From contig CBDCTI010000011.1 of assembly GCA_965222025.1 (NCBI GenBank), positions 70,990 to 134,989 of the forward strand: a stretch of 64,000 nt of DNA. Direction: 5' to 3'. Shown piece after piece: positions 15,308-20,188 of the stretch. The translations under genes and the position numbers were made by a program. The stretch comes from Dehalococcoidia bacterium. GTDB taxonomy: Bacteria; Chloroflexota; Dehalococcoidia; Lucifugimonadales; UBA3495. Below the pieces are notes generated by a model. It was given only the letters and a program-made list of their open reading frames with translations, did not search any database and was not told the DNA's origin. Within the stretch, counting starts at the first letter, position 1. Each line of letters opens with the position of its first letter.

Positions 15308-16105
15308 CTAGTGCCCCGAACGATGGATGACGACGGTTTCGGCGTGGAGGCGGGCCAGGGCCACTGTATCGTCGTCATCAGCGGCGTCGCCCATGACGCA
15401 GATGATGCCCCAGAGGCCGTCGCGGGCCTCGCGGGCGGCGCGGTTGACCAGCTCCTCGCGGTTGCCGGAGTGCATGGTCAGCTTTACGCCGCGCACCAAG
15501 TGGTCCACGGCGGCAAGGGCCTGCGGCTCGGCCACCACGTAGTCGGCCATGTTGAGCATGTCCTTGACCTCGGCGGAGAGGCGTGAGGGGTCACCGTCGC
15601 CGAGGACGGCGATGTTCAGGGCGCGGTCCTGGGAGCGGAAGGAGGCGACGAACTGGCGGGTGAGGTCGACCTGGCGGGCGTGGCTGGCCTCGTGTCCCGA
15701 AGAGCGTTCAAGGAGTTCGAGCAGGGTGAGGCCGGGGAAGGAGTTGGCCGGATTGGGCGGCGTTGCCGGTCGGGCCAACTGCTCGGGGGTGAGGTCGGTG
15801 AGCAGAGCGCGCAACCGGCGGTGTGTGGCTTCCTGTTGCTCCAACTCCTGTCGGAAGTGCTCCTCGCGACTGGAGAAGGGGGGCAACATGTCCATCTCGC
15901 CTTGGGAGATCTTCTCCAGCGCGTCAACATAGCGCTCGTAGTCGAGGTGCAGCAGGACGTCGCGGACCGACCAGCGCTGGCCGAGGAAGGCCTCTTCAGC
16001 CTCCATTCCCTCGAGGGATTTCAGCAGGATTTCGTGGCCTTCGTCGAGGCGTTGGAGGGCTGCGTCACGGCGATTGAGGATAGATTCTCGTTCTTCAGGG
16101 GACAA
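15308..16105 (-). CDS. DinB-like domain fused to a tetrapyrrole-methylase-like N-lobe
   Basis: TTG 16105 with GGAGG RBS. WSVRDVLLHL...HEASHARQ is the DinB His triad; IAVLGDGDPSRLS.E...L..ADYVV resembles a TP-methylase start. Confidence 0.6.
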   Translation of the reverse strand: MSPEERESILNRRDAALQRLDEGHEILLKSLEGMEAEEAFLGQRWSVRDVLLHLDYERYVDALEKISQGEMDMLPPFSSREEHFRQELEQQEATHRRLRALLTDLTPEQLARPATPPNPANSFPGLTLLELLERSSGHEASHARQVDLTRQFVASFRSQDRALNIAVLGDGDPSRLSAEVKDMLNMADYVVAEPQALAAVDHLVRGVKLTMHSGNREELVNRAAREARDGLWGIICVMGDAADDDDTVALARLHAETVVIHRSGH

Positions 16106-16208
16106 ATGGGCCTCCGTTGACTCGTGTCCAGATGATCCTGCGCGATTATAGCGGCCAGGCGTCGAAGCGGCGATGCTACAATCGTTGCGTATGGTTGCCA
16201 GCAAGACA

Positions 16209-16940
16209 ATGAACGGCGAGAGGATTTCCGCAGTGGGCCTGCGGCGTATGCTGGACGATTTGGCGGCGAACGTCGAAGGTGAACCCTCGTCGTCGCTGTA
16301 CCTTGTGCCCGGGGACCGGCCCGATCCGGCCGCACTGGCCGCTACCGGGTGGGCTTCGCTTGTGTCGGAGCCTGGAGAAGCTGCGCTGCGGGACGGCTGT
16401 GGGCTGGTGGGGTTGCGAGTGGGCGAACGCGGACTGCTGATTGCGCCGCCCTTTCCGGTGGCCGAGTCGTTCGTTTCGTTGGACTGGGATGACGAGGCGC
16501 TGAGGCTAATCCTGGACGCGAACTACACCGTGGGTGTGGTGCTGGTACGGCTGGGCAGGTTTTCGGTTGCGGTGTTCCGCGGTGGAGAGCTGCTGGAGTC
16601 GAAGACGGACTCGCGTTACGTAAAAGGCAAGCACCACGCGGGAGGAACGTCGCAGTTAAGATACACCCGAGTGCGGGAAGGGCAGATCAGGCGGCTGTAC
16701 GACAAGGTGTGCGAAGAGGTGGGAGGACGGCTAGCCCATCCGGCAGCGAAGCTGGACTACATGGTGTTGGGTGGCGAGCGGTTCACGCTGAACGGGTTGC
16801 TGAAGGACTGCCCGGCGCTGGCCGCGATGGGGCCGATCACGCTGAATCGGAGGCTGAACATACGCGATCCCAAGCGCGATACATTGTCTCAGGTTGCGTG
16901 GATGCTGACAGAGAGCCGAGTGTGGGAAGTGGAGTTTTAA
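16209..16940 (+). CDS. acVLRF1 (Vms1/ANKZF1-like release factor family)
   Basis: VVLVRLGRFSVAVF...SKTDSRYVKGKHHAGGTSQLRYTRVRE with the GGxSQ loop. Alternative start 16173. Confidence 0.8.
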   Translation: MNGERISAVGLRRMLDDLAANVEGEPSSSLYLVPGDRPDPAALAATGWASLVSEPGEAALRDGCGLVGLRVGERGLLIAPPFPVAESFVSLDWDDEALRLILDANYTVGVVLVRLGRFSVAVFRGGELLESKTDSRYVKGKHHAGGTSQLRYTRVREGQIRRLYDKVCEEVGGRLAHPAAKLDYMVLGGERFTLNGLLKDCPALAAMGPITLNRRLNIRDPKRDTLSQVAWMLTESRVWEVEF

Positions 16941-17038
16941 GGGTTACTGCTGCGGGAGTCCACAGGCGAGCAAGAGTGTGTATCCGCAGTCAAGCTCATA
17001 CCTCAAACGACGGTCAAGAATAGGATGGAGATGGCTGA

Positions 17039-19543
17039 ATGACCCTGGGCGGTTTTGAGTCGGCGGGGCGGTTGCTGGAATTCGACCAGGTGCTGGTGCG
17101 ACTGGCGGCATATGCCCGCACGTTCATCGGGCGGGAAAAGGTGGCGGCGCTAGAGCCGTCCGAAGACCTGCTTGAGGTGGCGACCCGGCAACAGGAGACC
17201 ACCGAAACCCGGCGCTACATTGACGGTGGGGGCTCGCTGGAGTTCGGCCCTGAGCAGGACATCCGGGAACTGATACACCGGGCCATCCTCGGCGGCCTGC
17301 TGCGGGGAGAGGAGCTGTACTCGGTCCGCACCTTTGCCCGTGCCGCGCGCATCGACCGCGATGAGCTCAGCCGCAAGGGGGACCTTCCGCTTCTTTCAAG
17401 CCTGGCCAGCAACATCCCGGAGCTGGGGCACCTGGACAACGAGATCGGCTCGGCCGTCAGCCCGGCGGGGGAGGTGCTGGACTACGCCAGCCCACTGCTG
17501 GGGAGGCTGCGGACCGAATCCCGGCAGGCGCAGAGCCGCCTGAACGACATAATGGAGCGCAACCTGCGGAGGTTCCAGCGGGCCGAAGTAGTGCAGGAAC
17601 CGCTGATCACGCAGCGCAACGGCCGCATGGTGCTGCTGATCAAGACCGAGATGCGTCCCAGGGTTCCGGGCATTGTCCACGACGTCTCGGACAGCGGCGC
17701 AACCGTGTTCCTGGAGCCGATGGCTGCAGTGGACATGGGGAACCGATGGCGGGAGGCCCGGCTGGCCGAAGAGCGGGAGGTGGAGCGAGTGCTGCGGCAG
17801 CTGTCGATCCGCGTGGGGGAGACGGGGGAGGACCTGCTGCTGGCGCTGGACATATTGGCGCGACTGGACTTGGACGTGGCCAAGGCGCGCTACTCGGCCG
17901 CGCTTCGGGCCATCCCGCCGGTCATTGAGGAGCCAGAAGATTCCGCAGAACGAGCAGAAGAGGGCTCTGAACATGACGCGACGCGCCGGCTTCACCTGAG
18001 CCGCGCGCGCCATCCACTACTGGCTGGCAATGTTGTGCCGATCAGCTTGTCGCTTGACTCGGAGCGCGGGGTGCTGCTCGTCACCGGGCCCAACGCGGGT
18101 GGTAAGACCGTGGCGCTCAAGACAGTGGGTCTGCTGGCGATGATGGCCCACGCCGGGCTGCACGTTCCGGCTGAGGACGCACACTTCCCTGGGTTCGACG
18201 GCATCTACGCCGATATCGGGGACCAGCAGAGCATCCAGCAGTCGCTGTCCACCTTCAGTTCGCACATCACGAACCTGCTTAGCATCATGCGCCGGGCCTC
18301 TGAGCGGTCGCTGGTGCTGGTGGACGAGTTGGGGACCAGCACCGACCCAGAGGAAGGGGCCGCGCTGGCCAGTGCCGTGCTGCGGCACTTCCAGCGCATG
18401 GGCGTCTTCTTGATCGGCACAACGCACCAGCGAGGGGTGGCCCGAACCGTGCAGGAGCACCCGGGGATGGTCAACGCCAGCGTGGACCTGGACCCGATGA
18501 CCCTGGCGCCTTCATACCAGCTGACCGTGGGGCTGCCAGGCCGGAGCTACGCGCTGACCATCGCGTCCCGGCTGGGGCTACCGCAGGAGATTATCGATGA
18601 CGCCAGCGCGGGCATTTCGCCGATGGAGCAGGCCACTGAATTGCTGCTTCGGGAACTGCAGCAAGAACGGCAAACGGTTGAACGGCTGAAGGACGAGGCG
18701 GAGTCGTCGCGCATTGCAGCGGTGAAAATACAGCGAGATCTGGAAGAGCAGCTGGGGTCGGTTGAGGCCACCAAGACGGAACTGGTGGAAGAGGCCCGCC
18801 GGGAATTGCAGCTTCGCACCAGCGGGATAATGGACAGACTGCAGCGGGCGGAACGGACTCTGTCACATCCTCCTGCCAGTCCACCCGCCGGGGAACTGGC
18901 GGCCAGCGCAGTAACAGCGTCGGTGTCGCCTAACCGTACATCGTCACAGCAGGGGCAGCAAGCTGAGTTTCGTGAGCAACAGGATGCGCTCCGGGGGGTG
19001 CAACGAGAGCTGGATGACGCCAACTGGCAACCCATCGAGATCAGGCGTACGCCATGGCAGGAAATGCTGAAGACCGGCGACCGGGTATACGTTCGGGGCA
19101 TCAGCCAGCCGGTGGAGGTAATTACTCCGCCCGACAGGTCGTCAAGCTCGAGCCAGGCTCAACGGGTGGAGGTGTTGCTGGGGACGATGCGGGCCAAGAT
19201 ACCCGTGTACCAGTTGCAGAGCCTCGCGGAGGGACATCCGGCAGCGGCCCGGCAGGGAGTGTACCTGGACCGGGCGGTGAGCCGTCCCGCCGCGCCACGC
19301 CGCCCGGACCCTGAGATGGACCTGCGCGGTCTGCGGGTGGATGAGGCGGTGGCGCGGGTGGATACGGCGCTGAACGACGCCGCGATGGACGGGGTAGGGA
19401 TGCTGCGTATCATCCACGGCAAGGGGACGGGTGCGCTGCGGCGGGCAATCCGCGAATATTTGTCCAGCCACCCGCTGGTGGAAACCGCGGCGGACGGGGA
19501 GGGGCCCGGGGGAGAAGGGGTTACGGTGGCGCACCTGCGGTAG
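17039..19543 (+). CDS. mutS2: MutS2 (ATPase, coiled coil, KOW, Smr)
   Basis: GPNAGGKT, LVLVDELGTSTD, TTH, GLPGRSYA, KTGDRVYV, DLRG...IIHGKGTGALR. Confidence 0.95.
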   Translation: MTLGGFESAGRLLEFDQVLVRLAAYARTFIGREKVAALEPSEDLLEVATRQQETTETRRYIDGGGSLEFGPEQDIRELIHRAILGGLLRGEELYSVRTFARAARIDRDELSRKGDLPLLSSLASNIPELGHLDNEIGSAVSPAGEVLDYASPLLGRLRTESRQAQSRLNDIMERNLRRFQRAEVVQEPLITQRNGRMVLLIKTEMRPRVPGIVHDVSDSGATVFLEPMAAVDMGNRWREARLAEEREVERVLRQLSIRVGETGEDLLLALDILARLDLDVAKARYSAALRAIPPVIEEPEDSAERAEEGSEHDATRRLHLSRARHPLLAGNVVPISLSLDSERGVLLVTGPNAGGKTVALKTVGLLAMMAHAGLHVPAEDAHFPGFDGIYADIGDQQSIQQSLSTFSSHITNLLSIMRRASERSLVLVDELGTSTDPEEGAALASAVLRHFQRMGVFLIGTTHQRGVARTVQEHPGMVNASVDLDPMTLAPSYQLTVGLPGRSYALTIASRLGLPQEIIDDASAGISPMEQATELLLRELQQERQTVERLKDEAESSRIAAVKIQRDLEEQLGSVEATKTELVEEARRELQLRTSGIMDRLQRAERTLSHPPASPPAGELAASAVTASVSPNRTSSQQGQQAEFREQQDALRGVQRELDDANWQPIEIRRTPWQEMLKTGDRVYVRGISQPVEVITPPDRSSSSSQAQRVEVLLGTMRAKIPVYQLQSLAEGHPAAARQGVYLDRAVSRPAAPRRPDPEMDLRGLRVDEAVARVDTALNDAAMDGVGMLRIIHGKGTGALRRAIREYLSSHPLVETAADGEGPGGEGVTVAHLR

Positions 19544-19569: not shown

Positions 19570-19860
19570 CTAGGGATTTCGATTTGAGGCATCTTTGACA
19601 TTGCCCTTAAGGGAGTCCGGGAACAGGTATGGCCTCAGTAATTCCGCTGCGTTTTCAAGGGTAATTCCTACCACTTCTCCCTCCTCGTTGGACTCTGCGG
19701 TCAAATGCTTTGCGACCATTTCTCCGTATCCAGCCGGACACCCGTTCCAGAGAGACAAAGTGTCCGAAACTGGGTCGTAGTAGATGTCCAAATCCCGAAG
19801 GGACAGAGTCTTCCCTATTGACTGATCCATTTCAACGGCCAATTCGTCGTCGGATTTCAC
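19570..19860 (-). CDS. DUF2283-like protein (putative antitoxin)
   Basis: IYYDPVSDTLSL...E.NEEGEVVGITLENA. GTG start overlaps the upstream TGA (GTGA). Confidence 0.65.
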   Translation of the reverse strand: MKSDDELAVEMDQSIGKTLSLRDLDIYYDPVSDTLSLWNGCPAGYGEMVAKHLTAESNEEGEVVGITLENAAELLRPYLFPDSLKGNVKDASNRNP

Positions 19861-20150
19861 GATGGTCGCCCCCAATCTCTTCGTTTCTGCCTATTGAGAT
19901 AGGCGTTAAACAGCTGCCCGTCCTGCACGATCACCAGCAACCAATTCTCGACTTCCGGGACGGCTCCCCAATACAACTCTCGTCCGTCGCCCAAGTGCTC
20001 CACGTGATATGGCCCCACCAGTGTACGTAGTATCCATTCCCATCTGGGTTCGGAGTGCTTTTGTTGAGCCCTGTCCAGATAATAGGGATGTGGACAATCA
20101 ATTATACGCTGTGCCGCTCGAAGTCGCCGTTGGTATTCAGGCGATCCCAT
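19857..20150 (-). CDS. Putative toxin, DUF4258/BrnT-like
   Basis: H.E.RWEWILRTL..P...E...DGR..YWG.V.E.E.WLLVIV.D...FNAY; translationally coupled to the DUF2283 gene. Confidence 0.5.
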   Translation of the reverse strand: MGSPEYQRRLRAAQRIIDCPHPYYLDRAQQKHSEPRWEWILRTLVGPYHVEHLGDGRELYWGAVPEVENWLLVIVQDGQLFNAYLNRQKRRDWGRPS

Positions 20151-20188
20151 ATCCACAGACCTGAGAAGCAAGGTCTACAAACGCAAAC

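Follow-up and report, generated by a model that had tools for sequence, protein, structure and literature searches.

A conserved mutS2-acVLRF1 gene pair in Dehalococcoidia as a candidate split-and-release unit of ribosome rescue

Introduction

In a 64,000-nucleotide (nt) stretch of DNA from a Dehalococcoidia bacterium (contig CBDCTI010000011.1 of assembly GCA_965222025.1; the whole stretch is called the window below), the gene acVLRF1, which encodes a small protein with the middle-domain fold of the aeRF1-type release factors, lies directly beside mutS2, which encodes an ABC-type ATPase of the ribosome. We find that the two form a conserved two-gene unit in many genomes of the class, in either of two gene orders. 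Judged from this conservation, the two proteins are very probably functionally coupled, and the pair is a strong candidate for a compact 'split and release' route of ribosome rescue. The more specific proposal, that they are a rescue pair in which acVLRF1 resolves the 50S-peptidyl-tRNA complex that remains after splitting by MutS2, is held tentatively, as a possibility with nearly as much to be said for it as against it.

Ribosome quality control (RQC) in bacteria is known mainly from Bacillus, in which MutS2 passes the obstructed 50S subunit to RqcH and RqcP for alanine tailing and Pth frees the chain. Collided ribosomes are split by MutS2, the product being a 50S subunit that carries peptidyl-tRNA (PMC10897456), and release of the nascent chain by Pth in B. 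subtilis RQC is reported in work cited by PMC11633108. The acVLRF-1 family was described by Burroughs and Aravind in 2019 with the GGxSQ loop as a family feature, and the bacterial VLRF-1 proteins were presented there as standalone, MutS2 and Smr being unmentioned (PMC6514570). We found no published description of an acVLRF1-MutS2 pairing, and the MutS2 papers make no mention of VLRF-1. Both protein families are known; what is new is the operon, its restriction to lineages that lack RqcH, an acVLRF1 paralogue that goes without MutS2, and the variable glutamine of the loop.

Results and discussion

In the window the two open reading frames (ORFs) are co-oriented on the + strand and 98 nt apart, acVLRF1 at 16173-16940 and mutS2 at 17039-19543, as a preliminary description of this DNA had stated. 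That description had also suggested looking for conservation of the neighbourhood, and the adjacency proved not to be unique to this genome, since it recurs in 43 loci of one acVLRF1 clade and in the window's own family. To arrive at these figures, 401 evenly sampled genomes from the class to which the window belongs were scanned for acVLRF1 and MutS2, the DNA around every acVLRF1 match was retrieved, and MutS2 was located within those stretches. acVLRF1 is present in 121 of the 401 genomes and MutS2 in 261, with 104 genomes having both, 17 acVLRF1 only, 157 MutS2 only and 123 neither, which amounts to a marked co-occurrence (Fisher odds ratio 4.8, p 3e-9, uncorrected for phylogeny). A maximum-likelihood tree of 143 acVLRF1 sequences, obtained by a quick search and weak at its deep nodes, resolved four groups that differ in their relation to mutS2.

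The first group, clade A, contains 48 loci from 17 GTDB families and is well supported (Shimodaira-Hasegawa-like approximate likelihood ratio test, SH-aLRT, 99). A co-oriented mutS2 stands directly upstream of acVLRF1 in 43 of the 48 loci, the remaining five being two at contig edges and three in which the genes are non-adjacent, and every one of the 48 genomes has MutS2. From the stop of mutS2 to the start of acVLRF1 the median distance is 36.5 nt; 26 of 42 loci have 60 nt or less between the genes, and two have a 4-nt overlap. When the neighbouring ORFs of these loci were clustered, only MutS2 and acVLRF1 turned out to be conserved across the clade, the flanks differing between families. A third conserved operon member (a tRNA-repair protein, a CCA-adding enzyme or an S4 protein) was considered and rejected, none being present among the clustered neighbours. 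We saw no MutS2-acVLRF1 fusions, the strong acVLRF1 matches all lying in open frames of 204-647 amino acids (aa), and the MutS2 matches in long open frames belonging to genomes that lack acVLRF1.

A second group, clade B (support 100, 16 loci), is an acVLRF1 paralogue found in six of clade A's families (f7, f8, f16, f96, f106 and f118). Its members (L012, L015, L016, L019, L020, L190, L194, L196-L198, L200-L203, L205 and L208), whose loop reads GGRS[Q/E] or GGSSQ, never adjoin mutS2, and 12 of the 16 genomes have no MutS2 at all, though most are 93-100% complete. A single genome, G244, carries both paralogues. Absence of MutS2 goes together with absence of the linked clade in families f7, f8, f16 and f106, so that these genomes carry either the mutS2-acVLRF1 operon of clade A or, mostly, clade B without MutS2.

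In the window's family (f1, support 99) the order is reversed, with acVLRF1 first and mutS2 second. This arrangement occurs in the window, in its metagenomic relatives (69-77% identity) and in a second genus, represented by genome G569, and thus in at least two genera. The upstream flanks differ within the family, a NIPSNAP gene in G569 standing where the window has a DinB_2 gene. In G569 the two genes are moreover separated (L187:3332-4291) by an inserted fragment of an IS200-like transposase (Y1_Tnp, E 1e-6) and by an ORF of 136 aa matching no family, all genes from acVLRF1 to mutS2 being co-oriented. The quick tree placed the window clade apart from clade A, and we do not claim that the two gene orders arose independently: in an approximately unbiased (AU) test a tree joining the two clades was not rejected (p 0.62), and the constrained tree was 12.8 log-likelihood units better. 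Whether or not the origin was single, the comparison of loci indicates that the two genes stayed together while their order changed.

The remaining lineages (57 loci; f12, f128, f111, f107, f2, f84-f90, f27 and others) have acVLRF1 unlinked to mutS2, although 50 of those genomes have MutS2, and we found no conserved neighbours of acVLRF1 among these 57 loci, which give the neighbourhood method an internal control. Such unlinked loci bear on the alternative that the arrangement is synteny inherited in one lineage by two housekeeping genes with no mechanistic coupling, MutS2 perhaps acting on DNA in its older anti-recombination role. Unlinked genes in genomes that have both fit this account, as does the AU result, which leaves independent re-formation of the pair not shown. 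It sits poorly with a pair that is kept between families while the flanking genes change, with gaps that are operon-like and in two cases overlaps, and with the survival of the pair through both a reordering of the genes and the insertion of a mobile element. It also offers little reason why the linked clade should never be without MutS2 and why the two should be absent together in four families, and the MutS2 of the window lacks the mismatch-recognition domains (see below). We therefore regard synteny without coupling as quite improbable.

The 255-aa product of the window's acVLRF1 gene matches the Pfam family acVLRF1 (PF18859) with an E value of 6.7e-28 (97.9 bits, cut-off 27.1). Weaker Pfam matches are to baeRF_family10 and to eRF1 domain 2 (eRF1_2). 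The corresponding NCBIfam model, NF041024, gives 115.8 bits against a cut-off of 125, the alignment spanning model positions 49-198 of 208. In our scan of the phylum the top Pfam scores fall in family f27, whose sequences group with actinomycete ones, and this suggests that the window's acVLRF1, as a Dehalococcoidia member, may simply be too divergent for the NF041024 cut-off.

An AlphaFold2 model of the protein (predicted local distance difference test, pLDDT, 89; predicted template modelling score, pTM, 0.85) was compared with known structures by Foldseek. The matches include eRF1 and aRF1 (E ~1e-10), Balon (8v9l and 8rd8, E 1e-6 to 1e-5), Pelota/Dom34 (E 1e-5 to 1e-4) and 60S-bound Vms1 (6r87/6r84, E 1e-3, TMq 0.41). 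Taken together, the Pfam matches, the model and the Foldseek results describe a short N-terminal extension followed by an aeRF1-type middle domain of RNase H fold, with the stop-codon-binding and C-terminal domains missing. Pfam found no Rei1 zinc finger, ankyrin repeats or VIM in the 255 aa. The loop GGTSQ (16641-16655, + strand, aa 157-161) is the counterpart of GGQ in eRF1 and of GSQ in Vms1, and the window's protein does keep the GGxSQ form that had been ascribed to it. After the loop begins a basic helix, RYTRVRE (16659-16679, + strand), in which R163 is invariant and R166 nearly so in an alignment of 20 sequences; by analogy with the description of the aeRF1 family in PMC6514570 this helix is a putative rRNA contact. 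The N-terminal extension has a PPFP motif (16446-16457, + strand), and at least 90% of the same 20 sequences keep its residues P92, P93 and F94. The PPFP motif is nearly invariant in all acVLRF1 lineages, linked to MutS2 or not.

The likeness to Balon raises the alternative that acVLRF1 is a protection or hibernation factor which occupies the A site when ribosomes are idle or stalled, and that MutS2 recycles those ribosomes. Balon is itself a bacterial aeRF1 homologue without GGQ, and it is a three-domain protein with decoding-centre and EF-Tu-binding parts (PMC10901736). acVLRF1, in contrast, consists of the middle domain and a short extension and has an invariant GG-x-S, and its link to a collision sensor points to rescue, not dormancy. 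A role of this kind strikes us as very unlikely.

Alignments of acVLRF1 show that both glycines, the serine and the arginine that follows are invariant and that the position of the glutamine is variable. In clade A this position is Q in 23 loci, A in 15, S in 7 and E in 3, and in clade B it is Q in 7 and E in 9. Within the window's family the window and its close relatives have Q and G569 has S, and the other lineages keep Q in 25 of 57 loci. Altogether Q is kept in 56 of 123 loci of the Dehalococcoidia class and f27, across which only GGxS holds. The glutamine cannot then be taken as the catalytic hallmark that the preliminary description made of it, being replaced in 25 of the 48 members of the linked clade and in G569. 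With so many natural replacements, the Q-to-L mutant proposed there as a control would be unsafe as a test of activity. In bacterial release factors, hydrolysis suffers far less when the glutamine of GGQ is substituted than when the glycines are, and so loss of the glutamine from acVLRF1 need not abolish catalysis. The reaction of ANKZF1 is reported to be a cut at the 3' CCA of the tRNA and not ester hydrolysis (PMC7026593). As far as sequences go, the variable glutamine is compatible with glutamine-independent hydrolysis, with nuclease action or with a non-catalytic role.

A non-catalytic role is at the centre of what we regard as the main rival explanation, with a Balon-like role and mere synteny both less likely. 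By analogy with Pelota and ABCE1 of archaea and eukaryotes, acVLRF1 would be a largely non-catalytic 'wedge' in the A site that assists MutS2 in splitting a stalled 70S ribosome or disome, or licenses the split, and it would not act later on the 50S subunit. The glutamine is gone in about half of the MutS2-linked clade, as it is in Dom34/Pelota; the acVLRF1 model matches Pelota/Dom34 structures; an ABC-type ribosome ATPase is the partner in both bacterial contexts (MutS2 here, an ABC-F protein in actinomycetes, as described below); and inactive Smr domains have been likened to inactive members of the eRF1 family (PMC10897456). The invariant glycines and serine of the loop suggest, on the other hand, that the loop functions at the peptidyl-transferase centre, and acVLRF1 has neither the C-terminal domain by which Pelota and eRF1 touch ABCE1 and GTPases nor a decoding-site domain. 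MutS2 of B. subtilis, moreover, splits disomes in vitro without any such factor (PMC10897456), and the A site is often occupied in ribosomes stalled mid-message. On balance we consider the wedge unlikely, and return to the proposal that acVLRF1 acts after splitting.

The other half of the pair, mutS2 (17039-19543, + strand), encodes 834 aa with an ABC-type ATPase core, a coiled coil, a putative KOW/SH3-like domain and an Smr domain. Its identity is clear from TIGR01069 (715.6 bits, cut-off 400), MutS_V (1.1e-34) and Smr (3.8e-21). Among Pfam domains only MutS_V and Smr matched, the mismatch-recognition domains MutS I and II giving no match. Of the two domains that the preliminary description had assigned, Smr holds up, with its DLRG (19319-19330, aa 761-764) and HGKG (19415-19426, aa 793-796, the HGxG motif; PMC10897456) motifs. 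The KOW/SH3-like MSSS domain (PF20297) is weak in the window, at 16.5 bits and below the cut-off of 26.8, and reaches 27.2 bits, above it, in the MutS2 of G569 from the same family. The ATPase motifs are a Walker A, GPNAGGKT (18086-18109, aa 350-357), and a Walker B, LVLVDE (18311-18328, aa 425-430), all four motifs lying on the + strand. In place of the nuclease-type, SmrB-like DxH catalytic motif the Smr domain reads DLR (aa 761-763), like that of B. subtilis MutS2, a protein which requires its Walker motifs for splitting, and which splits ribosomes and does not cut mRNA (PMC10897456). The presence of DLR rather than DxH, together with intact ATPase motifs, leads us to predict that the window's MutS2 senses collisions and has no nuclease action on mRNA.

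The 98-nt spacer between the genes (16941-17038, + strand) contains a GGAG Shine-Dalgarno sequence at 17027-17030, 8 nt ahead of the mutS2 ATG. No terminator or promoter patterns were found in it, and its predicted RNA folding is no better than that of shuffled sequences (z +0.82), with no stable fold. The spacer is poorly conserved and varies between 80 and 254 nt in relatives. Downstream of mutS2, on the - strand at 19570-20171, are two overlapping small ORFs of 101 aa (a weak DUF2283 match) and 104 aa (no family), which may together make up a small cassette; in locus L105, too, mutS2 is followed by a DUF2283-like ORF. On the other side, the gene upstream of acVLRF1 is divergent (15308-16204, - strand) and encodes DinB_2 and in addition weakly matches TP_methylase (tetrapyrrole methylase, E 0.002) in its first lobe. 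A DinB_2 gene encoding 265-267 aa adjoins acVLRF1 in relatives too.

What becomes of the split subunit depends on the other rescue factors of these organisms. RqcH, sought through its NFACT_N domain, was found in none of 49 genomes, which comprise 46 of the class (the window's own among them), two from family f27 and G371. Of 60 genera of other Chloroflexota, 35 have it, and the expected control genomes were positive. The genome of the window has SmpB, Pth (PF01195, E 3e-59) and two proteins with an RF-1 domain (352 and 365 aa), which are RF1 and RF2, and no RF-1-domain protein of the size of ArfB was found in it. The preliminary description had asked how the pair co-occurs with rqcH and pth, and the pattern is thus one of RqcH missing from the sample and Pth present in the window's genome. 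Elsewhere the co-occurrence of RqcH and MutS2 is strong, 97% of RqcH genomes having MutS2 (PMC11633108). For Bacteroidota, the phylum of bVLRF-1, the same source counts 1781 genomes with MutS2 and only 404, out of 1956, with RqcH. With RqcH in none of the 49 sampled genomes, MutS2 in this class works without its usual downstream partner. The absence fits a scheme of splitting and release without a tail, and retention of the two genes as a minimal unit by lineages with MutS2 but without RqcH supports the view that the two proteins are coupled.

In the scheme that we propose, MutS2's KOW and Smr domains would recognise collided ribosomes, and ATP hydrolysis by MutS2 would split the stalled ribosome and leave a 50S subunit carrying peptidyl-tRNA. 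With no RqcH to add an alanine tail, acVLRF1 would enter the vacated A site of that subunit, where its flexible GG-x-S-(Q) loop, backed by the basic helix that follows, would reach the peptidyl-transferase centre. The nascent chain would then come off the tRNA, through ester hydrolysis or through an ANKZF1-like cut at the tRNA 3' end, and the 50S subunit would be freed.

Several observations weigh against this scheme. Pth is present in the window's genome, and together with the chain release reported for it in B. subtilis RQC this means that release does not strictly call for a dedicated factor. In B. subtilis the partner of MutS2 is RqcH, and 157 genomes of the class have MutS2 and no acVLRF1. 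Most acVLRF1 proteins, namely those of other Dehalococcoidia lineages and of Actinomycetota, are unlinked or occur without MutS2, so that the core function of the family is independent of MutS2. Finally, loops with A, S or E in place of the glutamine in 25 of the 48 linked-clade loci, and with S in G569, would be unexpected for a strictly glutamine-dependent hydrolase. The two-step rescue pathway of the preliminary description is accordingly only partly borne out: the conserved pairing and the absence of RqcH speak for it, but the link is confined to one clade and the window's family.

The wider distribution of acVLRF1 was followed by a one-genome-per-species scan with the pattern GG[SW]SQ[AKH]RF[AE]R, derived from a 7-sequence alignment, which returned 404 relatives, of which the best 80 were examined. 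These 80 are mostly from Actinomycetota, with some from Dormibacterota and some from the Chloroflexota family f27. The pattern itself demands the glutamine, so the actinomycete sample cannot be used to judge its conservation. None of the best 80 has MutS2 near acVLRF1, which agrees with the report of no mutS2 and no rqcH in 3,213 genomes of Actinobacteriota (PMC11633108, Table 1). Expectations of a link throughout Chloroflexota and Actinomycetota are thus not borne out, neither these 80 loci nor the 57 other loci within the class having MutS2 nearby.

In about 48 of the best 80 loci a co-oriented gene for a ribosomal-protection-like ABC-F ATPase (NF000355) instead follows acVLRF1 at a distance of 0.03-3 kb, downstream of the suf Fe-S operon (set L022-L101; for example L057:6001-8361 and L074:6001-8383). 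The ABC-F gene is not present in the loci of Chloroflexota f27, Dormibacterota, Acidothermaceae and Solirubrobacteraceae, and the loci that have it come mostly from one class, so that inherited gene order may explain much of the pairing. The arrangement may be a prokaryotic counterpart of the Vms1-Arb1 partnership, which is found on the 60S subunit of yeast (PMC7026593).

Set beside known systems, the window's protein shares with the acVLRF-1 family (PF18859) the fold, the extension and GGxSQ, and the stop-codon-binding domain is likewise missing; it differs in that a whole clade is operon-linked to MutS2 and that the glutamine is variable in Dehalococcoidia. The eukaryotic eVLRF-1 protein Vms1/ANKZF1 acts on 60S-peptidyl-tRNA, and Vms1 partners the ABC-F protein Arb1 on the yeast 60S subunit (PMC7026593). 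acVLRF1 belongs to the same VLRF-1 clade and has the same fold, and its proposed substrate is likewise a large subunit with peptidyl-tRNA after splitting of collided ribosomes. Unlike Vms1/ANKZF1 it lacks a Rei1 zinc finger, ankyrin repeats, a VIM and a link to Cdc48, and its glutamine is not conserved. The pathways would also differ, the splitter being MutS2 here and not the ribosome quality control trigger (RQT) complex, with no ubiquitin or CAT-tail step.

Compared with the B. subtilis RQC system (MutS2/RqcU, RqcH, RqcP/YlmH and Pth), the architecture of MutS2 (its KOW/SH3-like domain being putative in the window), the DLR and HGxG motifs of its Smr domain and Pth are shared, whereas RqcH is lacking from the sampled genomes and a gene of aeRF1 fold stands in the operon instead. 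Pelota/Dom34-ABCE1 has in common with our pair an aeRF1-superfamily protein, often without the catalytic glutamine, beside an ABC-type ribosome-splitting ATPase. It differs in that Pelota's N and C domains are missing from acVLRF1, and in that MutS2 is not an ABCE1 homologue and splits ribosomes alone in Bacillus.

Conclusions

A broader proposition, which we put forward as doubtful, is that Dehalococcoidia run a tail-less, RqcH-independent, two-protein form of RQC, in which splitting is the task of MutS2 and a Vms1-like factor directly releases the 50S subunit, perhaps through a chemistry that is glutamine-independent or cleaves the tRNA, and that bacterial VLRF-1 proteins may habitually partner ABC-type ribosome ATPases (MutS2 here, ABC-F in actinomycetes). 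If true, such partnering would be a prokaryotic precedent for Vms1-Arb1.

MutS2 is present in about 65% of the genomes of the class and RqcH in none of those sampled, and the conserved mutS2-acVLRF1 operon offers a concrete, testable answer to the fate of the split 50S-peptidyl-tRNA complex. Should that answer be right, it would give bacterial VLRF-1 its first function and its first partner, and would connect bacterial rescue to the Vms1 step of eukaryotes. The variable glutamine could furthermore help to decide whether VLRF-1 proteins serve as hydrolases, nucleases or structural factors.

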